A stretch of 64,000 nt of DNA, taken from assembly GCA_030704615.1 (NCBI GenBank), contig CM060733.1, forward strand, positions 19,902,001 to 19,966,000, given 5' to 3'. This DNA is from Takakia lepidozioides (taxonomy: Eukaryota; Plantae; Bryophyta). Below, one piece after another: positions 1 through 46,255 of this stretch (positions are counted from its first letter, which is position 1; every line of letters begins with the position of its first letter). The position numbers were made by a program, and so were the translations under genes. The notes beneath the pieces were generated by a model, which worked only from the letters and a program-made list of their open reading frames with translations, ran no database searches and had not been told where the DNA came from.

Positions 1-924
1 AGGTGGTACCCTACAGAACTTGCACACAAAAGTGTTACTATATGGTGGTGTCACCCCAGGCTTGAATGGATTCTCACTGACACCATCCCATTCGCTATGG
101 TTTTGCACACCTGACAATGCGAAGTGTCTGCATTTCATGTTCTCGCATTTCAGGTGCCCATTACAGACTATTCGCCTGAATATGAGGTTGTCGTTGTTGT
201 GAATATTGGAGGTTTTTGTGCGGCACCAATGGTGCCCATCGTGCTTTTTGTCCATTCCTTCCAGGAGACTGGAAATTCCCCCCACGCGACCAGGAGGAGG
301 CAGCTCGAAAACAGTATTACCATCAAAAGATTCCGGCAAGAATGCCACCCTCTGAATATTGAAAGTGCTCCAGTCTATCCCCCTCAACTCACTCTTGAAC
401 CCTGCCATCCCACCCATGGCTTTCAGTTTAGGAATGACACTGGTGATCTCCTCCACATCTGCTTCTTCATGTGGACATGGCTGATCCATGGGCGGTAGTG
501 CACATGTGTCATCGGAGGATGAGTCCGAAAGCTCAACTACAGTGTTAACAGTACTCGTCTCCTTCTTGACAACCACGGGTGTTTTCTCCTGGGCCACTGA
601 TGTTGCCGTGCCAGGAGTTACGAACGATCCTGTAGACTGTCTCAGAGGAGCACTAAGCACCCTGTATCTGCCTAGAGGCACTCTCCATTGTGTGGTTGGT
701 GCAGTATGCGAAGGTTTCTGGAACGCGTACTTGAGCAGTTTTCCATTGGCATCGTACACTTCCCTCTGAAGGAATAGAGTTCCATTTTCCAACCGAAACT
801 GCGTTGCGAGGACGAGTTCATGCACCACCGCAAAACCATCATCTTCCACCTCGTAAGAAAATGGCACAGGGTGGTCCTCACTGAAGAAGTCCGCGTCAAG
901 GGAGCCCATGGCTTGGGAGGCCAT
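1..924 (-). CDS. Partial ORF (>308 aa, runs off the left edge) with a Cys/His-rich GCM/WRKY-like domain; probably a transposon protein
   Basis: Hand translation is open from ATG at 924 to position 1: ...LPESFDGNTVFELPP...GMDKKHDGHHWCRTKTSNI...FRRIVCNGHLKCENMKC...NHSEWDG...CKFCRVPP. It is missing from the ORF track because it has no stop in the window. The family assignment is inference. Confidence 0.6.
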   Translation of the reverse strand, partial: MASQAMGSLDADFFSEDHPVPFSYEVEDDGFAVVHELVLATQFRLENGTLFLQREVYDANGKLLKYAFQKPSHTAPTTQWRVPLGRYRVLSAPLRQSTGSFVTPGTATSVAQEKTPVVVKKETSTVNTVVELSDSSSDDTCALPPMDQPCPHEEADVEEITSVIPKLKAMGGMAGFKSELRGIDWSTFNIQRVAFLPESFDGNTVFELPPPGRVGGISSLLEGMDKKHDGHHWCRTKTSNIHNNDNLIFRRIVCNGHLKCENMKCRHFALSGVQNHSEWDGVSENPFKPGVTPPYSNTFVCKFCRVPP

Positions 925-2112
925 CTGCCAATGTTGCTTCTGAACGCAGAGTTCACCGTCCGATGGTGCTTCTGAATGCAGAGTGTATTAGAGCGAAGTT
1001 TTTGGCTACATAGAAGACGTCATTACACACAATTGCAGGTATCGGTCCTGCTTGCAGATCTCCTAACGCGGGTTGGCACATCAAAGAAATGTGTCCCCGT
1101 GCGAACCAAGCGGATGGTGACAGAGTGCCCAACTGCGGAGTGCATAATGTCAGCCCTAATGAAAGAATCCAACTGTTATTTTGCAGGTGCCCCAACAGTG
1201 CATTGGTTGAGAGGTTGACTGACAGAGCCGCCATTTGGCTGTCATGTCAGAGAGTCCAGAAGAGATGCCCATTTCCATTCAATTTTAACGGCACCTGCAT
1301 TGCTGTACAACTGTACATACTTGACATTCCTCTGAAACATCCCAAAAGATATTACCCAATAATGAACTTTTTCGGATGAGAGGAGTTTATACCCGAACGA
1401 ATTTTGGATGGAAGAGGAACTAATGATTTCCGCAGATATTCATAACGGTTAGATGGGCACGTGTTCGCCATGCATGTGGAATGAGCATGTGGCGAACAGG
1501 TTGTTCCGAGCGATCATTTTGGCGTTGAAGGCCTTGCGGTGACCCTCCCCTAGCCCTCTTTTTCCTTCTTTTCCTTATTGTCCTTGCAACCCTGGATTCT
1601 GCAGAGACGGTGACCCCACTCCGAGGGAGAAGCAAGCGTCGAAGAACACTTTATTTCACATCAAAGAAGCAAAGGGCATGCGCTAAGGAGAGGATGAGGA
1701 AGGCGAGACGGGAACTTAGAATGGGTGAAGAAACCTCCGGCGGAGATGAGAACGAAGGGCAAAACAGGATTTTGCAACCACATTTTGGAGATGAAGGTCT
1801 TGAAGTGATCCCGGAGGCGACCGAAGAGCAACCTCCAATAGAAGGGGGGGAGGATGAGGAAGTGAGTTGGGCTCGGGAGGAAGCACTGCGAGTGGAGAAC
1901 CAGGTCTCGAAAGAGCAGGGAGGAGAGATGGACGCGGAAACTCTGCCGTCTGCCCTTGTTTCGCACCACCGGGACCTCGGAAGCATGCTACCTCCAGACC
2001 ACATGGAAAAGTTGAATGCCTCAGGACCATCATCAAGTGCAAAGAAGAAACCGGAGGTGGCTATGAACTATCTTTTGCCTTTTCTGTTTTTGTCTTTTTC
2101 ATGCTAAACATA

Positions 2113-2647
2113 GAGGTCGACTTCAACCTTGCGTTGACGCAAGGTTGATTTCGACCTCCTAAGTATATGATGTGGGCATGAAAATAGTGCAGAAGCTGCC
2201 CTACAAACAAGCTATGCAGAGCTGGGGAAGATAAATGCTTCCGATGCATCATCAATTGCTAAGATGAAAGCAGAGAATGCAATCTACTTTTCCAATAGAT
2301 ATTTTGTTTGCTGAACACCAAATCGAGAGCTCCTAATCAACCTTGCATCAACGCAAGGTTGATGCCGACCTCCAGAGTGTATGTTTAGGGTTTAGGTGAA
2401 TCGAAGCAGATGCAGCACTCAAACCAACCTTGCGTTGACGCGAGGCTGATTTTGATGCCTCTTTTGTTCACTCCAAGAGGCCGAATTCTCGTACAATGAA
2501 CTGCAAGGTAGGGAAAATTGATTATTTGAAGCTCCCAGAAGAACCCTGCATCAACGCAAAGCATATATTGGGTTCAAAAGAAATTCCGAGATGCCTGTCA
2601 GACTAAGCTACATCCCCATCAATCAACCTTGCGTCAACGCAAGGTTG
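2113..2647. repeat. Cluster 1 of interspaced 24-bp palindromes CAACCTTGCGT-(TG/CA)-ACGCAAGGTTG (5 copies), intronic
   Basis: Copies at 2124-2147, 2338-2361, 2425-2448, 2541-2564 (degenerate) and 2624-2647. The first copy extends into a longer hairpin, 2113-2158 (gaggtcga...tcgacctc). Confidence 0.92.
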
Positions 2648-4517
2648 ATCCATGGGAGCTCAATCTGTCACTCACAGGATATTCATTCTTTGCAGAGGAA
2701 AAGAAAAAGGAAATCCGTCGGGGAAGATTTGGCAGTGTCAGAAGGTGATTTTGAGGAAGAGTCATTGGAGGGCCACTATGAAGACAAGGCCAAGGAGATT
2801 ATGGGTGGGCAAAAAGTGAACTCGTCGAAGGTGATTCTGTCGATGGAGGTTCCCGGCGGAAACTTGGTCATTCCGCTTTGCAGGATGATCTCCATGCCCG
2901 CTGTTCGACCAGCATTGAGGAATGACATCACGAAGTTGAAGAACAACTTTGTTCACGGCTATGTCAAGGGATCTGCAGTGTTCTACGTATCCACTATGAA
3001 CACGAAAGGAGAGGAGTGTCTTGTAACGGAGGACATTGAGCAAAGTTGGGATGCTGCTGGCGGGATGTAAACAGGGAGTTCGAGTTTAAGCTGTCCAAAA
3101 AGACCTCCACAAAAGCATTTATGGGAAAGATGTTTTTTGTCTAGGATGGGAACCACAGACTGCTTGCCTGGATGGATTACATTTCAAGCATGCATACGGA
3201 CGACATCGAATGGCACTGGAGCGTGGTTTCCATGGTTCTCGACCACAAAGGACGTGTCACGCAGCTCCTTACAGCCATGCACGACATAAACAAGTAATTT
3301 GCCAACATTGTGTCTGTTCCGAGTTCCCACAATTTGGAATCCACTTATGAGTTGAAGGTTTTTCCAGGTCCAATGAAACCTCTCATGTGACGACCAATCT
3401 CTGCTTCCGCATCCAGAAGATAGGGCTGATGCCATTGGATTCATTCACGAACGTGCTCAATCCTCAGCAGATGAAGAGGTGTGCTGAGAAGAAGACAAGC
3501 ACATGGTACAGCTTGACAAGAGAGGCTTTTCTTGACTACATGTACACTGTAAGCTTCTTGACACTTGTTTGCTTGTTGTTACTGCAGATTTTGTCAAGAA
3601 ACGCCAGTGTTTGATTCTTTTACCTGTTATGAATGCAAGCAAGAAATAACAGAAACTGGTTTGAAGGCGAAAGCTGAGTACTATGATTCCCACACAGAAG
3701 AGCAGAGGTCTGCAACTGGGCTTGAGAACATGATGAAATTCGAGATGAACAATCAAAGGAAGAACCTCATGAGTGCATTCGACAAACAAATCCGGATAGC
3801 AGATCCAGGTCTTGGCACGGAATTTCTGGAGCAGGTGAAAGCACATTATGACAAGTATGGCTTTAAGCCAGAAATGACTCAAGAGAAACTACATCGCCTT
3901 TCCATTTCAATGGTGGACAATGCAACCAAAATCAGGTGGTTGGAGATCTGGAATTCGGATCCACTTGTGAGAGACACCAACATGTTCCCAACTCCTGAGA
4001 GGGACTCGAAGACACAAGCAATAAAAGTTGTTAGCGACCACACATTCGACCAGTGGCTACACAAAGCCACATTCTGGAGCCAGGTATGGTTTCCAAAACC
4101 ATTTTCAGAAAGTAGTGTTGCTCCGTAATGTCTCGCGAATTCTTATGAGCTTTCTTGTTGCAGTTAGAAAAACGTGCAGTCGCTGCATTTGGGGAGTCCA
4201 TGGCAGACTACAAAATCCAGATGGCTTGCCCCCGGATCACACTGGAGGCCTACATCAGGAGATGGAAGCTCGCTGTCTGGAACAACTGCTTCTTCAGGGA
4301 GTTTGAGAAAGACAAAGGAATCTCCAGGTCATACGAATTCAAAAACTAGTACAACAGCGAGCAAGCAATGAAACGAGTGTTGTACAAGTGTGACCTCCTT
4401 GAAACAAATTTGGTACTTGAAGGGCATGTTTCTGCATTCTTGTGTTGTACTTTCTATATAACAGCTCGAATTTGCAGGTTATGAGGGAGCTCTGAGGGCT
4501 CTGGATGTGCAATCGAG

Positions 4518-5138
4518 CAACATTGCGTTAACGCAAGCTTGTATCCCGTTGTTTTGGTTTCAATTTCCTATAGGTGGGGTCTCCCATAATGCCATTTTTC
4601 TCCATGTGAAAGGTGAAAAACTGACAGGAAAATTAGCCTTGCGTCAACGCAAGGTTGATGAAGGGCCAGGCTATGTAGGTTTACCTGGGTTTTTGGGCTA
4701 TAATTTGCTGTCATTTCCAGTTTCAATGCTGCCAAGATGAACATAAAGTCTGTTTGGAGTCTGTTTGAAATGCTATTTAGAGCTTATTCTGTACCATCAA
4801 ACAGACTTGCGTTGACGCAACGTTGTTTGGTGGTATGGATTGCTAGAAATGTCCCGCAGCAATACCCTGATTTCCATACAATTGTAGGAAAGTTGTGGTT
4901 GTCAGATACCATGGACATGTGTTTCAACAGAGGAAATCAACATTGCGCCAACGCAATGTTGAATATCCGTACCAGTAGATATTCGAAATGATGTTTTCAA
5001 GCACTGTTTTCCATTTCCACTGTAAATGAAAACAACCTTGCGTTGAAGCAATGTTGAATTGCCCTTGTCAAAGAACAGTTCTCCGCATTTTGTGTTTCCC
5101 ATTTCTGCTCGATTCAACATTGCGTCAACGCAAGGTTG
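4518..5138. repeat. Cluster 2 of the same 24-bp palindrome (6 copies), intronic
   Basis: Copies at 4518-4541, 4634-4657, 4802-4825, 4938-4961, 5033-5056 and 5115-5138. Confidence 0.92.
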
Positions 5139-7755
5139 ATTCGGGACTGCAAAGGTGATTTCTGCGTGTTGCTTTCCTGCATTTCAATATCCTTTTCCTG
5201 ATGTGTGAGCTGTTTCATTTTCAGATCGAATGACTGCCTGGATTTTGTGTGTGTGATTCAGGTACATGTATCATGTCCTCATACCGGGAAAGTACCTTAG
5301 CGATGACCCAGACTTCATCTACTCATGGGCTGACCCCTCCAATGACAAGACAATGTACACGGCTGGTATTGCCAGAGACTGGAGCAGGGCGCACTTCAGA
5401 GACTGTGGGTGGTACCTCGACCTGCCAAAACAAGACACACCATTCGATGAAGTTGTTTTGAGAAACCTGAACGACAACGCAGCAGCAATTGCCCCACTGG
5501 CTAACAAAGACATTCAGGATAGAATCATTTCTGCTCTAGTTGCAAAAGAGCCCGAGAAATCTACTACTCCAAAACGAAAGGGGAAGATTGTCGGGGATCC
5601 AAAGGGGAAGGGGAAAAGTGCAGCTCCTCAAGGACAGGGACCGTCAGAGGTCCCTGAAAGACAGCCTTCTCCAACTAGGAGGGATAGGAGAACATCAAAG
5701 TTGAGGGAGCAGCCTTTCGAGGCGAGAGAACATCCCTCTAGGGTTTTGGGACAGTTCAATCGTCAGGTGCTGAATGAAAGTTTACTTGCAATGATGGAGT
5801 CCAGGAAGTCCACATTCAAAGGGGTGCCCTCGAAATCATGGGACATGCTTGTTTCGTTCCTCACTCAGGTAAGCACATATGTCTTAACTATTGTATGAGT
5901 GATTTTGGTTTGGCCACTTGTTCTGACTTATCCAGGGTGTTGATCTCGTGCTGGATTTGGATTTGGCTTCTTACACTGTCTCCTGTTTTTTGCTGAAGGT
6001 CACAAAAAGTCCGGATTGGGTGAATGGAGTTCAGCAGGCATACGCGACTAACCTTGTGGTGCTGGACATTCCTGACGGTTTTCCTGTCCCTGATGTGTTC
6101 CCTTCCAATTCGACCCCGACTTGGAACAAATCGGATTCTCGTTACTGGCAGTGGGCTTTCTCATTCAGCAACAAATTCCTTTTTGACTCGGGGGCTCTTC
6201 TTCTCATGCAGTCAAAGGACACGTCGGCACGAAGAACTCTTTTCAGCTACATGAAAGCTTCCGGGTTTCGTGTCATCAAAACTTGGACATGCATCAATGC
6301 TCTGCCTCTTACGAAGGGTGAGTTCCCGGGGCAGAAAGTGAGTTGGTTCCTCTCAATTAAAGTTTCATGGTTTTTCAGTAAATCAAAAGGTAGGTTGTGT
6401 CTTTTGCCTCATGCTCTCTTCGTGATTATTGACAGACTCGAGTGTTCGAAGCTTTGTGCCTGGTGAGGCGGAAGGACACTCTTCCTCCTGGTGTTGCTGA
6501 GTTCCAGTTGAGGGACCTTGCAGCTCACATTGACCCCACCTGCGAGCCTGTGGAGGATGATGTTATCTTCAATTACGTCGACTCGGGTCGAACTATGAAA
6601 AGGTCGATTGGTGTCCCTTGGAGAGGTGCACGGGAGAAATCTCCAGCTTTCATGCAGACTTGGGTGGAGACATGCAGCCGTCATGGTGGACGAGTGGTTG
6701 ACTTGTCTATGGGCACAGGTGGGGCCCTTCACATTGTGTTTGACATATGGGCAGTGACCTTAGGGAAGCCCTGTTTTAATTTCTCGTTCGTCTTGGATTT
6801 GCAGGAGCATCTTTTCATGCTTGCAAGAGCGCTGGAAGGCACTTCTTTGGCATGGAGGCTGATACGGAGCTCTTCTCAAGCGAGCTTCGTCAGCTTGAGT
6901 CCGGCACTACTTCTGCCCCATCCACATAGGGACTTCTGGAGGAGCCCGAAGCGCCTGAGGAGGATCTCGACGTGGACTACGATTTTGAGTGTGAGTAAGT
7001 TCGGCTGTAGTCGTGCAAAATATGTTGCATTTACTTGTGTCATTCCCGTTTGACAGATGGTTGCTTACATTGTCTATATCTGGATGTTAACATCTACCAC
7101 CATTCCTCTTCTTGCTTTCCGGCACCAGTCATCGAATCAGCAGACACCTTTCGGTTTCCAAGGATACTACATGTCCCCGAGTCCCCCTAGAGCTTACCGC
7201 TTGCCGGTTTACGCTGAAGCTTGCGCACGGGTATTATCCCAACAATCAATGTATTCGCATCTACATGAAGGTCGTGGAAAAAAAAAACGTCGCGGATGTG
7301 CTGCTGTATTCATAGATGATATTGTTGTAAACTCTGGAAGTGGTTCCTCTGAAACCTCCAATAGTTCTTGAGGTTCAAGTACCGAGGCTCAATAAATTGT
7401 GTTTTGGTTTTGCTTCCATCCCCAAACTGTTTTTCTAGTTCTTTGCGCGTTCCCGTAAGTACAGATAGGGATTGCCTGGGGTAGGTCTTCGGAATCCGGA
7501 ATTGAAAAATGTTTGTGGGTTGGAATGAATGTACTGCTTTGCAAAACAAAAGGGTTTGCTTTTAATATTCAGTTCTCTAGTGGGCGATCTCCTCATTCCA
7601 AAGGGATGACCTCAATCATAAACCATCCGCAAACCTGCCATTGTTCTCGGCTAGAAAGAATATTCATGTGGGGGCAATGAAGAGGGATAAAAAATAAGGA
7701 TCCGCGGTAATAGGGGAAGCCAAGGGGAAAGCAAGGTATTAGGGCCTAAACACGT

Positions 7756-8219
7756 GGATGCTTGCTTACGTGGCGTGAGCGAAGCCAGGCTCACAGGCTC
7801 ACGCGCAAGCATCCCCCCGTGCGGCCGCCACCACCCGAAAAAAAACAAAAAAACCAATGTTTGGCGCTTCGCCACGTGGCGCCTGCCAGTGCGTGCGGAA
7901 CGTGGCAGGCCAGGACGCGCACGTGCGGGCTGTACCGCCTGGCCGTGTGGCGATGCGCCGAGGTGCGGCCGAAATCCCAAAAAAATAAAAAAATAAAAAT
8001 TGGCGCCTTGTGTTTGACCTAATCCGTGGTTGAGAGTTAGGTCAAATGACACTCCATCACAAAATAAAGGGAGGGTTTATGGCGGCGCCTTGGGGTTAGG
8101 TCAAACCTCACCGCCGTTGGATCACGATAAGCCAATAGCAAAGATCTTGGCGATCGAACGGACGGTGTGCGGCTTAACTCCGCGATGCGCCGCACGCCCT
8201 CTGTTCGATCGTCAAGATC
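7756..8219. repeat. GC-rich cluster of inverted repeats/hairpins
   Basis: ggatgcttgc..gcgtgagc / gctcacgc-gcaagcatcc (7756-7814); ggcgcttcgccacgtggc / gccgtgtggcgatgcgcc enclosing gcctgcca / tggcaggc (7863-7959); tttgacctaa / ttaggtcaaa (~8014-8047); gatcttggcgatcgaac..gtgcggc / gccgcac..gttcgatcgtcaagatc (8143-8219). Confidence 0.75.
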
Positions 8220-8978
8220 ATTTGACGGGTCGCGGGCTCTCTACGTCCGTCAGATTTGTGACAGTCCTAATCAACGGTTGGAGCACTTGATCCATGTGGT
8301 GTATTCTTAATCATTTGCATTGGCGCATTAACAGCGCCCTGACCACCGCCAGATCTGCTGGGAGTCCATATCCACGGCGGGAACACTCCATCCTTGTGCT
8401 CGTTTACGCACCTCTGTGAGTGTACCACGTACACCACACGTTAGGTAGAGGCATATATAATCTGTCATTCTGCACTCATGCGTCCTTTTTTTTTCTCTCT
8501 TGCTCTGTCCTCCAGTCTGTCCTCCTCAGTCCATCCTATTTGTGTACCTTTGCATCTTTTTTTGTGTACCTTTGCATCAGCCAATATTCTCATGAGTATT
8601 TGCCTTGAGCTTTAGGGTTTACCAGAACATCTATTCATGTACAGACACGAGTTCATCGTGTAGTCAGATTATGTTCAAGCACATTAGTGTTTGTTTTAGG
8701 TTTTAGAGATTTCAAGGTTTGTTTCATTTCTTCGTTACATACCTTAGTCTCCCTACATTTTTACAGTTATCTTTATTTAACTATCATCCATGCCTCATCC
8801 ACTTGGATGATTATTCATCCATAGTAATGTCGACATTAGTGTCAAGGTCTGGCAGATTGTTGTTTAAAAACAAGCTAAAGTCTCATCACTTGACCTTCAC
8901 TCTGTCCCACATCACATCAAATACCTAAAAGTACCTACTAGTGCATCTGAATATGATAACATGTCATCTTCTTCACTT

Positions 8979-8980
<2 letters not shown>

Positions 8981-9010
<30 letters not shown>
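8981..9010. repeat. Poly-T tract (30 nt)
   Basis: Direct reading. Confidence 0.95.
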
Positions 9011-22427: not shown

Positions 22428-22718
22428 CTATCCAATGCACCAATCCCCATCTGGAACCATCTCAAGAGGTGGAGTCAAGCACCCCATATGCCAACCTCTA
22501 GAGCATCGATCACACACCAGCATGGTGGCTGCCCCTTTAGCAGACCCACACAACATGCACCTCAAACCTGCAGATACCACTGCCAGGTTTGGGTCAATCC
22601 TGCCATCGACATTCGGAAGGTGACATGGCGCACAATTACGCACATGGTCCTTCCAAGTTATGCCATCCCGACCCTCCAAGACCAAGACGCCTGAGGGCAA
22701 GACCTCTCGAACCCTCAA
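22428..22718 (-). CDS. Integrase C-terminus with a PHD finger (frameshifted continuation of pol)
   Basis: CMLCGSAKGAATMLVCDRCSRGWHMGCLTPPLEMVPDGDWC matches the C4HC3 PHD pattern, with the last Cys missing. Confidence 0.88.
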   Translation of the reverse strand: MRVREVLPSGVLVLEGRDGITWKDHVRNCAPCHLPNVDGRIDPNLAVVSAGLRCMLCGSAKGAATMLVCDRCSRGWHMGCLTPPLEMVPDGDWCIG

Positions 22719-25390
22719 ATAACACGTCCTGCAGTCACATCCAGGGTCGTAGGAGCAGTCTGCTGCAGATAGACATAGTCACCAGGGTTGAATCTCCGAA
22801 CCCCAGGACGATAGCCCCCACCACGTATGGTGGCATACCTCAACGTATCACGGTGTTGTGCAATGGCAAGGTTCTCGAAAGCCATGGGCATGACTCTCTT
22901 GAACAACTCTGCACGCTGCTCACATGCACGTGCCCACACGTCCGGATCGTCAAGGTTAAGAACTGTAGCAGCTTCTCTGCGAATGGATGTCGGCAAATCC
23001 GGCTCTCGGCCAAAGAGAAGAAAGTATGGTGAGAAGGAGGCAAGTGATGCTTGCTTGCTGAACCTGTAGCCCATGGCTAACCAGGGTAACTGAAGGTCCC
23101 AATCTCCTAGGTGTCCCTTCTGCAAGCCATACTTGCGCAAACCCCTCTTTACTGTCTGAACAACTCTCTCTGCCAAGCCATCGGCTTCAGGATGATCCCG
23201 AGAAGTGGTGCGGTGGTCTATCAAGGCCTTGTCACACAAAGCCTGAAACTCCCCCAAGAACTCTCTCCCTTGGTCCGTGAGTACCTCAGCTGGAGCACCG
23301 AATCGGCTAAGCACACAATCCAGGAATGCATACGCAGCTCCCTCACTAGCCTTATTAGGCAATGGAACCAATTCAATCCACTTGGAGAAGTGCTCCACCA
23401 TCACAAACACGTACTTGTTGTGGCGCATGGTCAGTGGCAACGGCCCTGCGAAGTCAAGACTCCACCTGTAGCCCAATCCCATGATCGGAAGAGGGTGCAA
23501 TTGTGGAGTAGGGGCGTTGAATGAAGCACGCACCCTGTCACACACCATGCACCTAGCCACAAATTGTTGCACCTCTGTGTGCATACCACGCCACCAATAC
23601 TGCCCCTGCAGTAGACTATGAGTGCGTCGCACCCCAAAATGCCCCAACTCCTCATAGGCATGCCGCACTAACCGTGCCCGCTGTGTTGGGTGAGGCACAA
23701 TCCTCACTCGACCATCCTCCCACACTCGGAGCAGGTGTGTTCCCTCCCACCTGAACCTCTTGGCTCGTTGTAGGATCCGATCCCTCTCCTTGGCAGTCAT
23801 AGTGGCTGCCGTGTCTCCACTGCGGAGGTAGTCCAACACAACTGAATCCTCATGTATATCTTTGGCGCCACCCTGCTCATTGCTGGCCTCAGGGTCCTCA
23901 GACACTTGATCTACAGTCATCCCTGTTGTAGGTCCAACCTGGCCTTCCGCTGCCAAGATACACAGAAATGCAGATGCATGCCATCCGGGCACCATCTCCT
24001 CGTCTGTCTCACCATGCCACCGAGCTCCAGTGTCATCCTGCTGGCTCGTGCATGGATTGCGACTCAACCCATCTGCATTTCGATTGACCAAACCCGGTCG
24101 ATGCACCACCTGAAAGTCATACTCTTGAAGGATGAGTGCCCACCGTGCAAGCTTCCCCGTAAGCTTGTCTGACTCCATCAACCACTTGAGTGGTTGGTGA
24201 TCCGTGACAAGGGTGAAGAGATTGCCGTATAGATAGCACCTGAAGTGTGCCACGGCCCACATTGCAGCTAAGCATTCTCCCTCATATGAGCTATACTTAG
24301 ACTCTGCAGCATTGTTCGAGCGGCTAGCATAAGCCACTACGAACTCTCTTCCCTCATCATCCACCTGTGTGAGCACCGCTCCAAGCCCCAGCATGCTCCA
24401 ATCTGTATGCAGCTGAAAAGGACGCCCCCTGATAGGTCGTCTCAAAATGGGCGCCGAGGTCAACCTCGCCTTGAGCTCTTGAAAAGCTTGTTCTTGCTCA
24501 TCTTCCCACTGCCACTCCTGGTCCACCTTGGTCAGCTTGGTTAGAGCCTTTGCAATGGCACTAAATCCCTTAACAAACCGTCTGTAATAGTTTGCTAACC
24601 CCATGAAAGCTCGAACTCGGCTCACATCCGTGGGGCGTGGAACCTGTGCAATGGACTCTACCTTAGTCTGCTGTACCCCCAATCCTCCAGGATATATCAT
24701 GTGACCCAGATACTCAATCTGGTTGTGGAAAAACTTGCACTTGCCCGGATGTAACTTCAATCCTTGCGTCCTCAAGCGCTCAAATACCCCCTGAAGGTGT
24801 CTCTCATGCTCCTCCACCGTAGCACTAAAGATGATGATGTCATCTATGTAGCACCGAGCAAACTCCACCCCTGCTAGAATCCTGTCCATGACTCTTTGAA
24901 ACTCAGCGGGAGCGTTTTTAAGCCCAAATGGTAAGAACCGCCACTGGTATAGGCAATCCTTCCCGTGCTCATTGATCCCCCAGAATGCCGTCTTTTGCCT
25001 ATCCGCCTCCTTGATCGGCAACTGGTGATATCCGGATCGTAAATCCAACGTGCTAAAGACCTTGGAATGCCCAATGGCATCAAAGATCTCCTCTGGTGTT
25101 GGCATGGCATACCTATCGGACTTGGTTTGACGATTTACAGGCCGGTAATCACCGCACATACGTCTCTCCGTCCAATTGCCATAGACATCCTTCTTAGCTG
25201 GCATCACCGTGGCTGAAGCATACTCTCCACCAGAGAGCTCCACCAAACCTGCCTCCCAGAGATCTTGAGTCCTCATCTGAATCAAAGACCTCTCCATGTC
25301 ACTGTATCTATAGGGTCTCCGAAAGATTGGCGTGTCAGTGGCCAACTCAATACGGATCTCTTGACCCTTCAGTGCTCCCAAGTCCTTCAA
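22715..25390 (-). CDS. Gypsy pol: RT - RNase H - integrase
   Basis: RMCGDYRPVN, LDLRSGYHQ, LPFGLKNAP, YIDD; LHTDWS, YEGECLA, VTDHQPL; GHFG..CMVC, WSLDFAGP, LTDQGREF, DGLAER. Confidence 0.96.
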   Translation of the reverse strand: MKDLGALKGQEIRIELATDTPIFRRPYRYSDMERSLIQMRTQDLWEAGLVELSGGEYASATVMPAKKDVYGNWTERRMCGDYRPVNRQTKSDRYAMPTPEEIFDAIGHSKVFSTLDLRSGYHQLPIKEADRQKTAFWGINEHGKDCLYQWRFLPFGLKNAPAEFQRVMDRILAGVEFARCYIDDIIIFSATVEEHERHLQGVFERLRTQGLKLHPGKCKFFHNQIEYLGHMIYPGGLGVQQTKVESIAQVPRPTDVSRVRAFMGLANYYRRFVKGFSAIAKALTKLTKVDQEWQWEDEQEQAFQELKARLTSAPILRRPIRGRPFQLHTDWSMLGLGAVLTQVDDEGREFVVAYASRSNNAAESKYSSYEGECLAAMWAVAHFRCYLYGNLFTLVTDHQPLKWLMESDKLTGKLARWALILQEYDFQVVHRPGLVNRNADGLSRNPCTSQQDDTGARWHGETDEEMVPGWHASAFLCILAAEGQVGPTTGMTVDQVSEDPEASNEQGGAKDIHEDSVVLDYLRSGDTAATMTAKERDRILQRAKRFRWEGTHLLRVWEDGRVRIVPHPTQRARLVRHAYEELGHFGVRRTHSLLQGQYWWRGMHTEVQQFVARCMVCDRVRASFNAPTPQLHPLPIMGLGYRWSLDFAGPLPLTMRHNKYVFVMVEHFSKWIELVPLPNKASEGAAYAFLDCVLSRFGAPAEVLTDQGREFLGEFQALCDKALIDHRTTSRDHPEADGLAERVVQTVKRGLRKYGLQKGHLGDWDLQLPWLAMGYRFSKQASLASFSPYFLLFGREPDLPTSIRREAATVLNLDDPDVWARACEQRAELFKRVMPMAFENLAIAQHRDTLRYATIRGGGYRPGVRRFNPGDYVYLQQTAPTTLDVTAGRVI

Positions 25391-25725
25391 ACTGAAGGCA
25401 AAGCAATTCCTATAAGCCCTCAGGAACCGCCGTATACGTCGTCTCTCTCCTCCGATGACAATGGGTCCAATGTCAGGCTCCCAATTGTCCTCCGTAACTG
25501 CAACCTTAAGTCCAGTGGGCTTAGAGGTAGAGGACGCGTCCCGTGGTTGCTATGCTGCAACCTCTTGAGCAGTACCCCCTTCCTGCTCAGTCAATGACAA
25601 GGCCTCATCCTACCCCATCATCTCATCATGGGAACCTCCTCATCCCAAGAAGAATCCCCAACCTCATCCATCACAGCTGCCTTCGCTGCCAACTCCCTCT
25701 GAACCTCGAGCACCTCCCACGTGTG

Positions 25726-28700
25726 TCATGGATGTCTACACCTCGTGGTCCTCACCGGCTCGCCCCCACTCGCTGCCTGTACCGTCTCGGTAGGCAGAGA
25801 GACCGTCAAGGGAAGTGCACTCCGCACTCTACGTTGCTCAGCCATAGCCAAGCTGACAATCCAGGTCAAGCAATTGAGATCCATTGCTTGCCCCAACACT
25901 TGACGACGTGATGCCTCAGAAAGAGAAGGCACCGCCGTGGTCCCAGTGGAAAACCCCATAGCCCGCTCTCGCTCGTCGGCATTAGGCTCCACTAACTGCT
26001 GCAACTGAGCATCCCACAAGAGGCCAGGTCCACCATCCCAAAAAGCATGGGATCCTGGGAAGCTGAGCAGTGTAGGTAATGCTGCTCGTGGTTGACCCAC
26101 CCTGTTGACCACTGCCAAAGGCGAACGGTCATCGTGTCTCACACGTTGAGACTGCCTTCCTGTGTCCAAAATGCCATCCACGGTGAGGTGTGCTGGCCGC
26201 TGCACCCCATCAAATGCACGCTTGAGCAGTGCGGGTGGCATCAAGTTAGTCCACCATAGTCGTGGACGATGAGCCCGTGACCCCACTGCAGCTGCATCCA
26301 GCAATACTGCTGACCCAAGCCACGACCGGACTTGATGCACACTGGCCATCACTCTGGCCCGAGAATCACCCATCAGTGGCACATTCTCCAAGATGTATGC
26401 CGGGGATACAGCCTGATGAAGCTGCAAGTGGCGCAAAATCCGCACCATCTCCCAAAACAGACCCGTCCTCGAGTCTCGCAATCCATTGCCATGCCCGGCT
26501 GATGAATGCCCTTGGCAGGGCCAACCTGCCACTACCAGATCAATGGAGCCAACCCGCTCCAAATCCTGCGCCCCCAGCAACGCAATGTCTGCTGGCAAGG
26601 CCTGCTGATATCCACGAACTGCAGACACCGGCAACAACTCAGGGTGCTGCTGCACCATCTGAGCAACATGGCGCAGTGAGACGCGTCGTGCAGTCTCATC
26701 CCTCTCCACATACAGGTAACGTCGAACTTGTACACCTGCCTGCAGCACTGCAGCCAATCCAGTGCTGATTCCGCCAAATAAGTCCAGAAGGCATATGCCT
26801 TCATCCGGCCGCTGCCACACAAGAGGTGTGGTGTCCAATGGCGACAACTGAGGTGGCCCTGGTGCAATCACCGCACTCTCCTCCTCTCCTGACGGTACAA
26901 AAGCTTCTACCCAAGCTTGTTGCACCCGTCCATCAGCAGCTTGCTGCAAATCCTTGCTCGTACCCCACAACGGAGTGTGAGCAACCATGGCAGGCAACTC
27001 CGCCGTACCATGCATGTCATCCTGCTCTGCTGGAGGTGGCACATCCTCTGCATGGGCATTGCCTTCCAGCAACTCTCCAGGCCAACTAACTGCAGCTGTG
27101 AAGGCGGCTAGTGTTGGCATCTTGCCCCGCTGGGCAGCTGCAATACCCCCAATGAATGTCACAGGGAGCTGTGCACGGCGACCATCCCCTGACTGCCATC
27201 CAGGCCTGTAGGATGCTGACTCCTCCCAGAAATCCAGGGTAAAGCCCATGGGGTATAACACTGCCCCACCAACGAGGACATCGTAAGAGACCGCGTCTGT
27301 CACAATGGCCTTGGCTCGCATCACTGAGCCATCTACAGGATGATCCGGCTGCAGTTTAATAGCCAACTGATGCCGTGTCATGCCGCGAGCCTGCTCTGAT
27401 CCTCCCAAAGATGTCTGTATCTGGAAATGACAAGGCTCCATATCCGCCTCCATGAGGCCCAAACCTGCAATAGCAGCTCTGCCCAACATCAGTGGCTGAG
27501 CTCCTGAGTCCAACAAGACCCGCAGTGGCCGGTACTTCTTACCTGCCGATCCACTCAAAGTGAAAATGCCTCTCTGGTTGTCTAACAAGACAACTCCAGG
27601 TGTCACCATGGCGCGCTCAAAGGCTGGCCTAGCTGGCAGCTCCGTCAATCTGGCAGCTGCAGCTTGCCAGGGCGCTGCCGTGGCAGTCTTGACCCTCAAA
27701 TCCGAGGATCCCTCTGCCACTACACCTTCCACTAACTCCGCAGAAGATGAAGTGACCTCCCCACTCTCACAGAGTGTTGCTGCTAGTCTGAACACTGCAG
27801 CTGGTCTCACCCCCGGCGTCGCAATCATTGTTGCCGAGAACAGTGGGGCCTGACACACAGAGGTGGCTGCCCCCAATAACACACCGGCCGCACTAGCCTT
27901 GGCAGCAAGAGTCAATGCTGCACGTGTAGCTCTCCCCAATGGCATAGTAACCTCCGCCTCGGTAACAGTCGGGCGAGAACTAGGTGCCATGGATGGCGTC
28001 GACACAGTCTCCGCCAATGTGAATGACTGAGGAAGCCTTGCCTGACGGCTTGCCTCCCCACGCCGTGGATCCAATTCCACCTCTGCACCTCGTGGCTCAG
28101 GAACTCGTGCTGCTCCTCGAGTCACGGCTGCAGCAGACTCCACCTGCTCTAGTGGTAGTGCTGCTCCGCACATAAATCCCATGCCTCCCATATCTCCTCC
28201 CTCAGGAGCAGGAGGTGGACCATCCCGCCTGGGAGCCGGTACCGCCTGAGCTATAGCCATGGCAGCGAGCCTCTGCTCTAGCTGCTGAAGCCGGTTGGCC
28301 ATGCCTTGATCAACGCCCTGACCTCCGCGTCCTTGGCCATGTTGAGCTTGCCCTTGGCCTGCACCTCGTGCCCGACCACCTCGTCCTCTTTGGGCTGGTC
28401 CACCTCGCCCCCGGCCACCATTGTTCCCTTGGAACTGGCCTGGGCGCAACTCAGGATGCAAGTCATAACACTGGGCATCTCCATGCCCATACTTGCCACA
28501 ATGCCCACACTGCAACTGTGCAGGCTGTGCTTGTGCCGGCCTTCTGCCACTCTCTGGGCAATCTCTCTTGACATGGGGTCCTCCACATGTCCAACATATC
28601 ACCCCTGGTTGCTGTTGGCCTACAAAAGATGCCACGGGCCTCTGCACCTGAGATCCCCTGTAAGCTCCATGGAACTTGGGCTGGGCAACCTTGCCCCCCT

Positions 28701-29751
28701 GACCACGCTGTTGGGCAGTCCCTTGTGCTTGTGGGCTGACAGCTGTGCCCCGTACAGGCATGTCCTTGCCAAATCCAATTGTAACAACTCGCTCCTCCAC
28801 CATGTTGAGCTCAATCCGCTCAGCCAGCAAAAACACATCTGCTAATGTGGGTTGGGCTGCTTGTAACAGGGTTGCATCTCGCACCCTTCTCTTGAGCTCC
28901 TTGTCCAGAATTCCATACCAAAACTGGATTGCCTGAGCTTCAGTAACCCCTTGGGTCACACTTATCAAGCGCCTCATACGAGTGTACGCCTCTCGCAGGC
29001 TCTCACTGGGTTTGCGCTGGAAGTCTTGCAAACTTCGCAGCTTCTCTGTCCGTACACCTTGGTAGTTCCTCCGCAACTCCTGGAAGAACTCCACCACCGG
29101 GTTGAATCTAGGCACATGTGTTGTAGTTGTGGCAGGAGGAGTAGTAGCACCTTTTGAACTGGTACCACCTGCAGAAGTACCAGCACTACCTGCTCCACTA
29201 CTAGTGCTGGCAGTGGGAGCTATTGGTACTGATGCAGCTACTGGTCGCGTCGTGCCTCGAGTAATGGAGACGTAGTCAGGTGACCAATACATCCTCCACT
29301 CCTCAATCTCTGCTTCATGTCCTTGCCTGAACTCGTGGTAATCGTCCATAGGCGGGCCTTCCAAATGCTGGAACAGTCCCTTCCACGCCATGAATGGGGT
29401 GAATAGCTGTGGATTGCGCATCTGCTGCAAATCACACCAGCTGTCGAACTCCTGGATAAAGTCATCCAACTCGATTGTGCCCACAGCTCCAGAGTACCTA
29501 CGAGGCCCCTTGGTAGCTCCATACATCTCCTCCATGTCGTCCCACAACAATGGCGAATGAAAGTGCACACCTGTTGATGAAGCCTCCGAGTCTGTGTCTG
29601 ACTCTACAGTAATTGAGGGTGGCGGTGAAGGTGGTCTGAACCGAATACCTCGTCTTGTGAACCCACTCTCACTGTTACTGCCTGTAGCCGTACTCCCCTC
29701 AAAACCCTTGGGTAACTCCGTAATGACACTCACAATGTGCACCTCCTCCAC
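25726..29751 (-). CDS. Gag - two Zn knuckles - aspartic protease - DNA (cytosine-5) methyltransferase polyprotein (1341 aa)
   Basis: Gag (FQRKPSESLREAYTRM), CWTCGGPHVKRDC, CGHCGKYGHGDAQC and protease LLDSGAQ. C5-MTase motifs: LDLFGGISTG (I), YVERD (II), AGWPCQG (IV), ILENV (VI), AHRPRLWWTNL (VIII), ERERAMGF (IX), RRQVLGQAM (X). Confidence 0.95.
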   Translation of the reverse strand: MEEVHIVSVITELPKGFEGSTATGSNSESGFTRRGIRFRPPSPPPSITVESDTDSEASSTGVHFHSPLLWDDMEEMYGATKGPRRYSGAVGTIELDDFIQEFDSWCDLQQMRNPQLFTPFMAWKGLFQHLEGPPMDDYHEFRQGHEAEIEEWRMYWSPDYVSITRGTTRPVAASVPIAPTASTSSGAGSAGTSAGGTSSKGATTPPATTTTHVPRFNPVVEFFQELRRNYQGVRTEKLRSLQDFQRKPSESLREAYTRMRRLISVTQGVTEAQAIQFWYGILDKELKRRVRDATLLQAAQPTLADVFLLAERIELNMVEERVVTIGFGKDMPVRGTAVSPQAQGTAQQRGQGGKVAQPKFHGAYRGSQVQRPVASFVGQQQPGVICWTCGGPHVKRDCPESGRRPAQAQPAQLQCGHCGKYGHGDAQCYDLHPELRPGQFQGNNGGRGRGGPAQRGRGGRARGAGQGQAQHGQGRGGQGVDQGMANRLQQLEQRLAAMAIAQAVPAPRRDGPPPAPEGGDMGGMGFMCGAALPLEQVESAAAVTRGAARVPEPRGAEVELDPRRGEASRQARLPQSFTLAETVSTPSMAPSSRPTVTEAEVTMPLGRATRAALTLAAKASAAGVLLGAATSVCQAPLFSATMIATPGVRPAAVFRLAATLCESGEVTSSSAELVEGVVAEGSSDLRVKTATAAPWQAAAARLTELPARPAFERAMVTPGVVLLDNQRGIFTLSGSAGKKYRPLRVLLDSGAQPLMLGRAAIAGLGLMEADMEPCHFQIQTSLGGSEQARGMTRHQLAIKLQPDHPVDGSVMRAKAIVTDAVSYDVLVGGAVLYPMGFTLDFWEESASYRPGWQSGDGRRAQLPVTFIGGIAAAQRGKMPTLAAFTAAVSWPGELLEGNAHAEDVPPPAEQDDMHGTAELPAMVAHTPLWGTSKDLQQAADGRVQQAWVEAFVPSGEEESAVIAPGPPQLSPLDTTPLVWQRPDEGICLLDLFGGISTGLAAVLQAGVQVRRYLYVERDETARRVSLRHVAQMVQQHPELLPVSAVRGYQQALPADIALLGAQDLERVGSIDLVVAGWPCQGHSSAGHGNGLRDSRTGLFWEMVRILRHLQLHQAVSPAYILENVPLMGDSRARVMASVHQVRSWLGSAVLLDAAAVGSRAHRPRLWWTNLMPPALLKRAFDGVQRPAHLTVDGILDTGRQSQRVRHDDRSPLAVVNRVGQPRAALPTLLSFPGSHAFWDGGPGLLWDAQLQQLVEPNADERERAMGFSTGTTAVPSLSEASRRQVLGQAMDLNCLTWIVSLAMAEQRRVRSALPLTVSLPTETVQAASGGEPVRTTRCRHP

Positions 29752-30270
29752 GTGACACTATAAGGCTCTAGTACTAATCTAATAGTGACACGGGTGGGCA
29801 CCTGTTGCAGTCTAAGGGTCATATCCCAATGGCTCAGGGCACCTGCACCTGCATCCACCGCAAGAACTCCTATGGTTGGCTGGTCATCAACCCAGCCTCA
29901 CCATAGAAGAAACACTGGTGGTCTTGCTGGTCATCACTCCAGCCTCACCACCGACAGCATACTCTAGGATTGACCGGTGATCAAATCCGGCCTAATCCCT
30001 ATGAAAGCAAGCGCCCACACAAAACCAACATGGCGCACAGTCAAGCATGCAGGTGTTGGGGAGGATCCAAACACAAGAAATCAAAACATCAACACCCCCA
30101 CACCAAAATCCAGCAGCAACGCTGATCCTGCAGAATATCCCAGCCCAAAACCCCGGGCTGACTGGCCTCCACCAAGAGAGGCTTTGGCAACTACAAGTAC
30201 AAGGTAATGAAAATAGTACAAAGATGGAGGGGAAGAATAGAAGCCCGCCCAAGCAAGATCTAATCCTGAT

Positions 30271-33062: not shown

Positions 33063-33419
33063 TGATAAGAAAGCTTGGAAAGACACACACTCTCAACACA
33101 AGAAATGTGAAATCCCTCAACATCACTCGTTAAAACAGTAGTCGAGCCAGGGGCACCCCAAGCTATGGGGACTCCACCCCACAACAACCTACACTCCCAT
33201 CATGAGTACACTCAGATCTAAACGCATGCAGGAGCCCGGTCGCGCAGGCTCAACTCGAGAGAGATGAGCTGCGCGACTGCCGCTCTCGTGAAGATAAGAC
33301 GGACCAGGTGTCAAACTAAACTTGACACCTGATTTAACACTTGACCTAAATCCAAGTGTTAAATACAAATAACTAGTTTTATTCTAGCTGTTTTCACACC
33401 GTGCTTATTTAACTTGACA
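33063..33419 (-). repeat. 357-bp repeat B, 5' terminal copy
   Basis: Matches 9872-10228; lacks the A segment. Confidence 0.95.
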
Positions 33420-36330
33420 AAGAATACACGCATGCATTTCCGGATGAGGTGGTACTTTGTGACAAACTCGGGGAGGACTATGTTGGTGTTCTCCTTTCCA
33501 GGGTGCTAGTGGGAGGATGTGGATCTCTCATGTTCATTGTCAAGTGGCCTTTGATTAGAACAAAATTCTTGCAAAATGGAAGGTTGCTTTCGGAAGATTT
33601 ACAAAATTTCTACAGCTCCGAGATGGCTAGTGAGCCGGAGGATGGTGAGTGTGGTATAAAGAAGGCTCCTTACAGGCATTTTCGTAGATCCAAAAGAGGT
33701 GTTGCTTTGGATGAGTCTTGGAAATCAAAAAGGTTACTCTCGAAAAAGTCTGTGAGAGAGGTCAGTATCAAACCATGTTGTCAGCTTCGATGTTGTCAAT
33801 TCTTTGACTGGAAGAAGACACTTGCTCTTCGCACCACATTTTGGGGATCTACCTTTGACAATAGACGAGAACTGGGATTTGAAATTCCACGGAGACTACA
33901 CAGACTCGAGGGGTCAACTCGTCGAACATACATTACTATTGAGGGAGAGGATATTTGCGAGAAGGCGTAGTGGACAATTCATGGAATTGGCAGGTCAACT
34001 TATATGGAGTACAAAAGACTCTCCAAAGAATGAGTTATCTCTTCTGTGCATGGAAATTGTGGAATGAAGCGGCCCCGCCCAGAGACTGTTCAGGCTGAGG
34101 GGAACATATTGTCTATCATTAACGGGAACAGTGATTTCATGCCACATAAGACGAGATGTATTGGTGAGGGACACCAAGATACACTCCGTGTACTACCTCC
34201 AGAGATTAATTGGAAACGAGTTCGAGATGAGTCCAACGAGGCGAGTATTTTTTTCTCATCTACTTCTTCTTTTGGACCTCTCTATTAAGACAATGTGAAT
34301 AAGATGTGATTTGGTTGAGCAAATATATTTTTTACATCGATCGATCAATAGTATTTATTTATCTACTACCTGTATTAGGCTGATGAGATTACTACAGCAG
34401 ACCTCGATATTAGTGTCAACGTGCTAATATATTCTTGGGCGCACGTGACAGACCAATCAGGTTCTGGGCTTAGGGCCTATTTCTACTTCAGCAGTGAGTC
34501 GAATTAGAAAGAATATGTTCTCCAACGACGAAGTCAGAAAAAATGGAGGGACATTTGCAAAATGTACAGAGTGTGAGATGCTAAATGACCTCATTAAGAA
34601 GTCTGTGAAAAGAAGTGTAGACCAAATGTGTCATAAGAAAGCTCTTGACAAACATTTGAAGCATCAAAAGTCTCACCGGAGACTCTACCATAGCTGGAGG
34701 AATGAATCAGTTATGATGCCAACATAATTCTTATGCATCATTCATGATAAGATGGATCATCAAAATACTGCTCTTTCATGTTTGCAAACAACGAACAATA
34801 TAATTTCAGGCTTGGGGCAGCTTCCAGTGTCTATGGTGGGTATCGTTACTCACGGTCACGGAGATGGTGCGTACGCTCAATATTGGATGGATTTTTGGCT
34901 AGCAGATCCCAACTTCGTTATAGGATCTTTGACTAGAATTTTGCGACAATTGGAGAAACCAACATGTCGTGAATCAATGGCCCTTTTTGACAACCCCATA
35001 CAAACTGATTTCTTTGAAGTCATAATGAGAGGAAAATCCAGGTGTTTGGATGTTTTGAAGTCTTGTTTTAAAAATGAAAAAAAGTGAACGTTTCCATTAC
35101 CACGAAGATTGTATCTACAAATGGACAATTGTGTCAAAGACAACAAGAATAGGTGGATGTTGGCGTTCTTATCACTGCTTACTGCAAGAGGGGTGTTTGA
35201 AAAAATTCAACTTGGTTTCCTTATGGTTGGCCATACGCATGAGGACATTGATGCTTATTTTAGTTACCTTTCGAAGAAATTGAAAGAGAACAACACCTAT
35301 GTTCTTTCCGATCTCATGAAAAATTTCATGATATCTCAAGACCTACAGTTCATTCCGCAAATAATTCAAGAAGTTCCAGACTTCAAGGATTTTGTCTATG
35401 GCTTTATTTTGGAGGGGAATGAGGCTTTGGTTGGAGCTACGGAAATGCATTTTTTTTGGTTTTTTGTTGATTCGGATGGCTGGCCTCTAATGCAATACAA
35501 AAAATCTGCAACAGATTCCAATTGTCTTCCAAAAAATGGCAATGTCAAAATGTGGAAAGCAAAAGACGATGGTTCTCCAATGCTTCTAGTTGGACAGCCA
35601 AAACCGCTCCGTAAGAGACCTATTTGGGGAGATGGTGAGGAAGCATCGGAGAAACAATCTTGCATCAAGTCCGGTATTAAAAAGTACATGGATTTTTGGA
35701 AAAAAATGACGCTATTGAATGATCAATATGGAAATATCATGAAACAATATGATCAATATTGGGCGGATATTCTTGAAGAACTTGACCTTCCGTTGGAGGA
35801 GCCAAATGACGAACTTATCGAAGGATTTTGGCCAGTAACAAAATGGGTCGAGCACCATAGGAGAGACGGTGCTCATAGACAGTCTCAAGACGCATTGTCC
35901 GATAATGAAGATATTGTGGGCCGAGATGTGACCGTCCGAAAATACCGTTGAATCCATTCAAGGATATTGAGAAGGGATTCTTTGTCCTTGTTCGTCCAAA
36001 TGATACGGAGACTTTTCCTGTTTGGATGAGAATGACAATATCGAATGTTGTACGAGATATAGAAGATCGCAATTACAAAAAGCTTCTTGTGGAGTGGTGG
36101 AGACCGAAGAAAGGGGGCAATCCTACAGATGCGGATAAGATTGTTGGTCCAAAAATTGGGAGTTCAACCCAATGGATTCCGCTCAATGGATTCATGTTGA
36201 CAATGTAGTGTGGACAATGTCACCGAGAAAAAATACGACAAAAGCAAGTACAAAAAAGATAACTGTTCGAAAGGCGGACAATGCTAGAGCAAATTTGGAA
36301 TCAACAAATCATCAAGATAATGAAAACTAA
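33420..36330 (+). pseudogene. Decayed Sola-like (DUF7869-type) DDD/E transposase
   Basis: CCQLRCC..FW, KCTEC, IIHDKMD, YLQMDNCVKDNKN and FLMVGHTHEDIDAYFS; several stops and frameshifts. The superfamily is recalled from motif similarity. Confidence 0.7.
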
Positions 36331-36599
36331 AATGGTATGAATGCAGACAACTCTCCAACTTTCTTGTTTTCTTGTAATGTTTTAAATCTCAATGACTTTG
36401 AATGATGGATAAAAAATAATTGTTTTACTCAATTATAATGTTGTTCATTCTTCTAGCCAAATTTGGACCACTTACAATAAATTTTGTATGAATAAATTTT
36501 GTTACAGTGGTTGGGATTAAAAAAAAAACCTTTTGCTTAGTAATACTTGCAAGTTTTTATATAACCTCCTAAACAATTTTCCAATTTTTTTTTTGGATT

Positions 36600-45958: not shown

Positions 45959-46255
45959 GAATCCATCGCGACTCAAACAGTGAGGAGGCAGATGGACTTA
46001 ACAATCAGGGTCAGCCCACCTGATCTGGTCATACAAGCAACCTCCACTGCCCAGTCGACGATGCGAGATGGAAGAAATGAGTCGGAGATGTTCGTTGCTC
46101 AGCGCGAAGGAAAAGAGAGCGAGCAGCCACAACAACAAATTCGGAATCCCTCCCCGAAACGGGTATACACTTCATAACCATCTTAGATATGTTCTTCTTT
46201 GTCCTTCTTCTAGTTCTCAAAACGAATTAATTGTTTTGTTATTCCACAAGATGAT

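Follow-up and report, generated by a model that had tools for sequence, protein, structure and literature searches.

In a 64,000-nt stretch of the genome of the moss Takakia lepidozioides (GCA_030704615.1, contig CM060733.1, positions 19,902,001–19,966,000 of the forward strand; hereafter the window, numbered from its first letter), two long introns of a single gene carry arrays of a 24–28 bp palindrome. The gene is a passenger on a multicopy, likely Mutator-type element (Mutator-like element, MULE), and it is predicted to encode a ParB-type N-terminal fold followed by a domain resembling N4/N6-methyltransferases. We regard it as about an even bet that the palindromes are family-specific binding sites for the passenger's own protein on this element.

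Palindrome arrays in two long introns

The window contains 10 matches to the consensus CAACMTTGCGTNNACGCAAKGTTG with up to 3 mismatches (starting at 2124, 2338, 2425, 2624, 4518, 4634, 4802, 4938, 5033 and 5115), all within 2124–5138 and there only in the two long introns, while 100 dinucleotide shuffles gave 0 matches. An eleventh copy, at 2541, is degenerate (7 mismatches) and is included by position alone, because chance-level sites at 30026 (6 mismatches) and 43956 (7) score as well or better. The eleven palindromes reported by a first-pass annotation of the window are therefore real, as ten clear copies and one degenerate copy. Its statement that the motif was not seen elsewhere also held: with a half-site matrix, 20 half-sites scored 16–24 bits, every one inside the arrays, and the rest of the 64 kb gave a single weak site (12.4 bits, at 35653). 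Viral contigs contained 0 exact matches to the palindrome, and likewise none to the palindrome of the second family described below (L004).

Array 1 comprises five copies (all palindromes are unstranded features): palindrome 1 (2113–2158, core 2124–2147; TG centre, 8-bp self-complementary flanks), palindrome 2 (2338–2361; CA centre, flanks resembling those of palindrome 1), palindrome 3 (2425–2448; TG centre), the degenerate palindrome 4 (2541–2564) and palindrome 5 (2622–2649; CA centre between perfect 13-bp arms). Array 2 comprises palindrome 6 (4518–4541; TA centre), palindrome 7 (4634–4657; CA centre), palindrome 8 (4802–4825; TG centre, a further ~14 bp of flank pairing), palindrome 9 (4938–4961; symmetric A-type arms), palindrome 10 (5033–5056; TG centre, mixed arms) and palindrome 11 (5115–5138; CA centre, mixed arms). 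The best copies lengthen to 26–28 bp. Start-to-start distances are 214, 87, 116 and 83 bp in array 1 and 116, 168, 136, 95 and 82 bp in array 2, so the spacing of 82–214 bp given earlier applies within each cluster. The mixed orientation of the centre was likewise confirmed (CA in 6 copies, TG in 4, plus TA in 1), as was the occurrence of the A-type half-site both symmetrically (4938) and mixed (5033 and 5115, to which we add 4518). The spacers are largely unique, as first described, except that the copies at 2124 and 2338 share related flanks across 46 nt.

The passenger gene lies on the plus strand. Its predicted first exon (1694–2056, in an open frame at 1529–2104) is acidic and of low complexity, with a start codon at 1694 or 1721, and is followed by long intron 1 (2057–2694, acceptor at 2677 or 2694), which holds array 1 and whose borders are predicted from splice signals only; these borders and the first exon lie outside RNA contig cover. 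Hypothetical proteins of Ceratodon purpureus are homologues of the exons around the arrays, and one of them (P0022, 1147 aa) was used in tblastn to place the exons of the ParB-like domain and a helical region (~2678–3293, 3368–3548, 3640–4083 and 4164–4387; 31–48% identity). Long intron 2 (4388–5261, 874 nt, GT..AG), with array 2, follows, and the reading across its junction is continuous with P0022. Its start, earlier put at ~4413, is corrected to the GT donor at 4388, with which the joined reading VLYK-YMYHVL lines up without gaps with NRLIYRYWKHIL of the Ceratodon homologue. The linker and methyltransferase-like exons (~5262–5868, 5999–6337, 6437–6718 and 6805–6990) were also placed by homology to P0022 and include the LDIPD and DLSMGTG regions. 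The array-bearing introns (621–638 and 874 nt) are 5–12 times longer than the six others (74–130 nt).

A frameshift near 3054 and stop codons at 3142–3144 and 4347–4349 interrupt this copy, at positions where other copies read through; judged by these lesions it is a pseudogene, which would be only a target in trans. In one run, guessed to be RNA, a near-identical contig over the methyltransferase exons is spliced at an intron of 86 nt. The two runs so guessed cover some exons, leave the arrays uncovered and are uninformative on array expression. Two further observations concern gene structure. First, a contig from a guessed-RNA run skips 6991–7119, which would imply one more intron and then a last exon; other copies have 6 additional bases at 7119. 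Second, 2193–2299 and 2479–2508, between palindromes of intron 1, resemble small exons (AG before, an open frame, a GT or decayed donor after), and micro-exons may divide intron 1 into several introns.

A multicopy, likely Mutator-type element

Run X1 yielded 5551 contigs on 1–9000 at a spread of identities. Past 7800, summed contig depth, which is not the same as copy number, falls from 7,900–43,800 to 920–1,830 in X1 (more than tenfold) and from 18–73 to 0.6–9 in run X5. The depth step marks the right end, near 7820, of a multicopy element whose left end lies beyond the window, and the earlier assignment of the gene to a eukaryotic mobile element is borne out. MULEs have matching termini and a 9–11 bp target duplication. 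The approximate right end (7756–7818, unstranded) is marked by the depth step and by a terminal imperfect inverted repeat, which lacks the array motif and folds no better than shuffles. No ParA was seen in 1–7820, the left part of the element being outside the window. Serine-recombinase sites have inverted arms around an asymmetric 2-bp core; a site of this type was set aside, as no recombinase was seen in the visible part of the element.

The gene divergent from the passenger gene, ~800 bp upstream, had been described as encoding a neighbouring GCM-like protein. Its 5' part (1–909, minus strand, ATG at 909) leaves the window at the left end and encodes a Cys/His (WRKY-GCM1-like) N-terminal domain with a conserved W, C, C, C/H pattern that has no sequence match in Pfam or PDB. 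A HMMER search with the minus-strand frame from 909 gave 372 relatives (E at most 0.001), including named ones from Riccia and Calypogeia; it succeeded where a word-based search found no long relatives and the atlas had no usable match to this region, and viral contigs contained none. The long relatives P0179, P0033, P0183 and L009 continue into MFDH, FMAD, CxFH(W/F) and NLxExVH. L009 also has a SWIM-like finger (CxC..CxH) at its C-terminus and a weak match to Transposase_mut (PF00872, E 0.038, short of the cut-off). The combination of a DDE core with CxxH and a C-terminal SWIM finger was seen in the relatives L009, P0179 and P0183, the core of this copy lying outside the window. MULE transposases are described as carrying WRKY-GCM1 DNA-binding domains, and this order of motifs is the usual MULE architecture (PMC1702500). 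The GCM-like gene is thus likely the N-terminus of the element's transposase, and the element is likely Mutator-type because relatives of this gene follow the usual MULE motif order. The identity first given to this protein changes to a Mutator-type transposase (relatives P0179, P0183 and L009).

The transposase could itself be the binder, its zinc domain reading the half-site and the arrays serving activation or synapsis, a reading that we judge quite unlikely. The core contains TTGAC, which is the WRKY W-box core. The WRKY-GCM1 domains of MULE transposases and the ability of the AtMu1 transposase to activate and hypomethylate cognate copies on its own (bioRxiv 10.64898/2026.08.24.746577) speak for it. 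The AtMu1 transposase, however, peaks at the terminal inverted repeats, whereas the right terminal 800 bp of this element contain no half-site above 12 bits with our matrix. The hexamer CTTGCG does occur once at the right end (7804), but 20 further occurrences lie outside the element, and the core of the L004 family is without TTGAC.

The predicted passenger protein

The structure model used here is that of the homologue P0022, built on 23 sequences. For its residues 237–389, the best matches are the N-terminal domains of ParB, Noc and KorB (7bnr, 7bm8, 7ol9 and 8qa9; Z 8–9.1, root-mean-square deviation 1.9–3.4 Å over 89–104 residues), the top ParB-type match reaching Z 9.1 at 1.9–2.0 Å over 94–98 residues; sulfiredoxins rank lower (Z 5.6–6.8). 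Foldseek puts the same ParB-type families first. The Pfam ParB profile had no match in the exons of the window or in the 23 homologues, and sequence searches of solved structures had none. On this model, the passenger gene is predicted to encode a ParB N-terminal fold. Its ParB-like exons contain the motifs IPLCRM...VRP...DGNHR...MHDIN, and the family motif is DGNHR, with R254, G335, H337 and N382 near-invariant. These residues may be the counterparts of the cytidine triphosphate (CTP) pocket residues of ParB (GxRR), CTP being a putative substrate. Residues 385–604 of P0022, folded alone, reached a pLDDT (predicted local distance difference test) of 64, and one long helix filled their list of fold matches (best Z 5.9); no helix-turn-helix (HTH) DNA-binding domain of the ParB type was among the matches of this segment, the listing being swamped by that single helix.

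The C-terminal domain matches the N4/N6-methyltransferase family PF01555 in two of the 23 aligned proteins, both the long ones (best E 1.9e-8; 30.4 bits in P0022 against a cut-off of 26.7); the separate exons of the window, searched individually, had no match. The first-pass reading of the protein as ParB plus methyltransferase thus stands as a predicted ParB N-terminal fold and a methyltransferase-like domain. Motif IV precedes motif I, as in the beta class (the LDIPD region, then the DLSMGTG region). The canonical motif IV of amino-methyltransferases is (D/N/S)PP(Y/F). Here it reads DIPD, with DVPE in L004 and DTPF or DQPY in Ceratodon. Catalysis by this domain appears doubtful because motif IV is altered in this copy and in L004, and we think it rather improbable that the domain still methylates DNA. 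The earlier proposal of a self-targeted load-and-methylate system is not supported so far, considering the altered motif IV and the apparent pseudogene state of this copy.

Searches beyond plants returned little. Among viral contigs, the ParB alignment matched two phage loci at a borderline level (E 1e-3; in one, L002, the match consists of a DGNHR stretch within a protein of 3853 aa), and it had no match in two overlapping sets of additional cyanobacterial genomes (400 and 47). L001, the sole match of a one-exon metagenome scan, was rejected as a bacterial false match. As a separate lead only, P0022 residues 205–460 look, by language-model features, like clusters of fungal DUF3723 proteins (score 0.96); in search listings, 31 papers contain both this family's name and the term Starship. 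The Starship-associated DUF3723 family may hold a ParB-like domain; DUF3723 together with ParB was not found in the literature searched.

A different array beside the same gene in a second family

When prokaryotic assemblies were scanned, one locus was returned, L004 (CADCWO010000058.1), which bears introns and lies in the cyanobacterial bin G001. It is likely plant contamination because the bin also holds gypsy, copia and DUF7869 elements; many plant transposon contigs in G001 are contamination of this kind. L004 encodes the same ParB-methyltransferase gene (24–46% identity to P0022 by segment). Its first 400 bases hold four units of a long palindrome with a period of 106–109 bp, forming a tandem repeat of a ~90-bp palindrome whose units are 61–87% identical. 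The 28-bp core, AATTGGGTCTCGGATCCGAGACCCAATT, is unrelated to the core of the window and was found nowhere else in the bin. The L004 array ends ~350 bp before the ParB codons, compared with ~225 bp for array 1 of the window, and L004 is without an intron at the position of the second array. A related transposase contig, L009, is in the same bin; this co-binning was rejected as proof of linkage, as gypsy, copia and DUF7869 elements share the bin. L004 provides a single independent instance of what was predicted, the same gene with a different array at an equivalent place. Covariation of motif and protein subfamily, put forward as a check in the first-pass annotation, is seen to this extent in a distant relative and has a scope of two families.

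Conservation and symmetry of the cores

Copies of array 2 were compared using four runs on 4300–5350, from which 40 of 197 differences were shown, selected by support and non-independent. Among the 36 intronic substitutions shown, 0 fall in the six cores (5.9 expected), and 13 of 873 circular shifts also gave zero. Core CpGs are intact at 19 of 22 positions, and spacers are depleted in CpG (observed/expected 0.48). Of the 15 joints shown, 9 join core to core across unalignable sequence and 2 join the same exon end to a core. Diverged relatives thus seem to keep cores and change spacers, which is suggestive of cores being more conserved than spacers between copies, the comparison that had been proposed at the outset.

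Insertion of an unrelated dispersed miniature element at each palindrome would account for the two orientations and for the 5–12-fold longer introns, and summed depth does peak at the cores. Such peaks are equally expected from array 1 and from diverged copies, however, and the other 61 kb of this transposon-rich window contain no such palindrome. Flanking direct repeats at the copies show no excess (4.8 versus 4.8 for swapped flanks), and only 2–3% of contigs run on into unlike sequence, although an isolated match of 24 bp may fall below the length that can be placed. We therefore hold this origin to be very improbable.

RNA hairpins are a further candidate, the introns acting as small-RNA precursors or splicing elements. 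Compared with 20 shuffles each, both introns do form better folds (z −5.4 and −6.2), and the copies at 4634 and 4802 preserve sense-strand pairing via G-U. The z-scores arise because the palindromes themselves produce them, however, and no Rfam family reaches its gathering score. Departures from arm symmetry in the cores comprise 5 plus-strand and 7 minus-strand G-U pairs, 8 mismatches and 1 compensated pair, and G-U-compatible changes in the flanks number 18 plus versus 23 minus, so the sense strand is not favoured. Both loop orientations are present, and mixed half-sites break the stem. On these grounds the hairpin reading has a slim chance of being right, and the earlier preference for a dimeric-protein site over an RNA hairpin is maintained, as the arm departures have no strand preference and the centre is present in both orientations.

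Each copy's own flanks show better pairing than flanks swapped between copies (p 0.004 for the plus and 0.002 for the minus strand, about 0.002–0.005 overall), an effect driven by 4 of the 11 copies, whose flanks are self-complementary and differ from one another. This pairing fits descent from long palindromic units like those of L004, with arms homogenised in DNA, better than it fits sense-strand RNA. It also fits the rival view that the arrays are only a self-propagating palindromic satellite, in which hairpin-driven slippage, arm conversion and intron inflation would proceed with no protein partner. The L004 array, a plain tandem repeat, speaks for such a satellite, and unit number differs between copies of the present element (one contig returns from 2642 to 2591, another skips 2445–2621). 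Neutral decay should nevertheless hit cores and spacers alike, whereas the cores are near-identical in two introns with unalignable spacers and their CpGs are retained, and the unrelated palindrome by the same exon in L004 would be a coincidence. We consider the satellite explanation unlikely.

Comparison with known systems

The closest parallel is the VANDAL/VANC anti-silencing system of Arabidopsis MULEs rather than bacterial partitioning. VANC binds short motifs that are clustered as repeats in VANDAL introns, those of the accessory genes included, and in other non-coding parts such as the region upstream of the transposase; the motifs differ between families (PMC5735166). The likenesses are a Mutator element with an accessory gene, family-specific intronic motif repeats and a variable number of repeats. 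Unlike the present gene, with its predicted ParB fold, methyltransferase-like domain and 24–28 bp palindromes, VANC has DUF1985/DUF287 and motifs of 8–9 bp; neither DUF had a Pfam match in the exons or the 23 homologues, and the protein is not a VANC family member. Binding and hypomethylation have been shown for VANC, whereas here they are proposed by analogy.

ParB-parS, Noc-NBS and KorB-OB share with this gene the predicted N-terminal fold (Z 8–9.1) and clustered palindromic sites in or near their own gene. ParB-type proteins are CTP-gated clamps, and parS is ~16 bp long. In contrast to these clamps, the gene studied here is eukaryotic, spliced, carried on a transposon and fused to a methyltransferase-like domain; it has DGNHR for the GERR-type motif, a domain longer by ~60 residues and longer sites. 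The resemblance lies in site layout and N-terminal fold; an HTH, CTP use, sliding and a ParA partner would be hypothetical here, and membership in a ParB-parS system is neither established nor claimed.

As with Spm TnpA and the AtMu1 transposase, an element protein would need dense family-specific motif clusters; theirs are terminal, whereas here they are internal, intronic and palindromic (10.64898/2026.08.24.746577). Two eukaryotic N4/N6 DNA methyltransferases whose origin is bacterial also invite comparison. Marchantia DN4MT1 is similar in having an amino-methyltransferase fold in a plant, and the main text of that study mentions neither ParB nor moss (10.1101/2021.02.12.428880). A chlorophyte-type Dam family has a ParB-HTH fusion in chlorophytes and chytrids with a different methyltransferase group (PMC4738411); that fusion uses the HTH of ParB, whereas the present gene has an altered catalytic motif and sits on a transposon with its own arrays. 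PMC6446971 does not mention moss, Marchantia, GCM or methyltransferase. We found no description of a ParB-methyltransferase gene on a moss or bryophyte transposon in the literature searched, Repbase-type annotations and supplements being outside its scope (the supplement of PMC4738411 may list it).

Other features of the window

A hairpin with 34-nt arms lies just beyond the right end of the element (8140–8222; the score for Rfam mir-7640 is far below the gathering cut-off). On the minus strand, 22718–29757 is a Ty3/gypsy-type element; its gag-protease frame includes, in addition, a domain of the C5 cytosine methyltransferase type (PF00145, E 1.9e-12), and relatives of its pol part, 69–70% identical, occur in contigs C201 and C148 of bin G001. 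DUF7869 transposase-like frames (E 4.9e-38) followed by 8 interspaced copies of a 38-nt AT-rich motif (36607–38616) suggest that 33413–38700 is another element carrying a motif array, placed internally or subterminally. Two pairs of direct repeats, each at least 300 nt long and identical or 99% identical (9872–10171/33063–33362 and 39686–39985/45230–45529), are likely long terminal repeats of recent nested retrotransposons. Fragments with weak NIF phosphatase matches, and a cytochrome P450-like gene recognised in its translation, were seen at 46214–46570, 49587–50000 and 55945–58016.

Discussion

If the palindromes are binding sites for the passenger's own protein, the arrays would have arisen as tandem copies of a long palindrome, as is still visible in L004, and the spacers would then have decayed while the 24–28 bp cores were retained. 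A dimer of the accessory protein would bind a core, likely close via its nucleotide-binding ParB domain and spread over the element, and it would regulate cognate copies or shield them against silencing by the host, in the manner of VANC on VANDAL elements. In a more elaborate version, bryophyte Mutator transposons would have domesticated a prokaryotic ParB-methyltransferase module: a sliding clamp, gated by nucleotide, would load at the family-specific arrays in its own gene and mark the element with N4-methylcytosine or N6-methyladenine (4mC/6mA) against silencing, protein and palindrome co-evolving family by family and the fungal DUF3723 Starship proteins being possible distant counterparts. 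Such a module would amount to parS-like loading and spreading at work in a eukaryotic nucleus; this also strikes us as unlikely.

Several points weigh against the binding-site reading. The fold evidence comes from the model of P0022 rather than of this copy, and the Foldseek E-values are weak (best 7e-3). Motif IV is without its aromatic residue in both this copy and L004. The L004 array may sit in 5' non-coding DNA rather than in an intron, and the tie of L004 to a transposase, in a comparison of only two families, is a candidate one. The substitution test is biased towards zero, as contigs tend to end at palindromes and differences there are filtered, and 157 of the 197 differences were unseen, those shown being selected and non-independent. 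The core-to-core joints are short-sided (21–26 letters) and may stem from array 1 or from organisms other than this one. The excess of own-flank pairing is unnecessary for a plain protein site and fits an origin in DNA structure. Finally, VANC motifs are only 8–9 bp, and the word palindrome is absent from the main text of PMC5735166.

Sequence-specific escape from methylation silencing is known from few cases (VANC, TnpA and the AtMu1 transposase), all in flowering plants. It is puzzling how VANC, starting from short motifs, exerts an effect that extends over kilobases; a ParB-type clamp offers a ready mechanism, and the element described here supplies both the protein and, in two or more sequence versions, a candidate site for it. 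Even if only the neutral satellite explanation holds, the arrays would still serve as a marker for an unannotated MULE lineage. If the palindromes do bind the passenger's protein, this would be the first function for a bryophyte gene family annotated as hypothetical or as N4/N6 methylase, and possibly a second route to 4mC/6mA in land plants.

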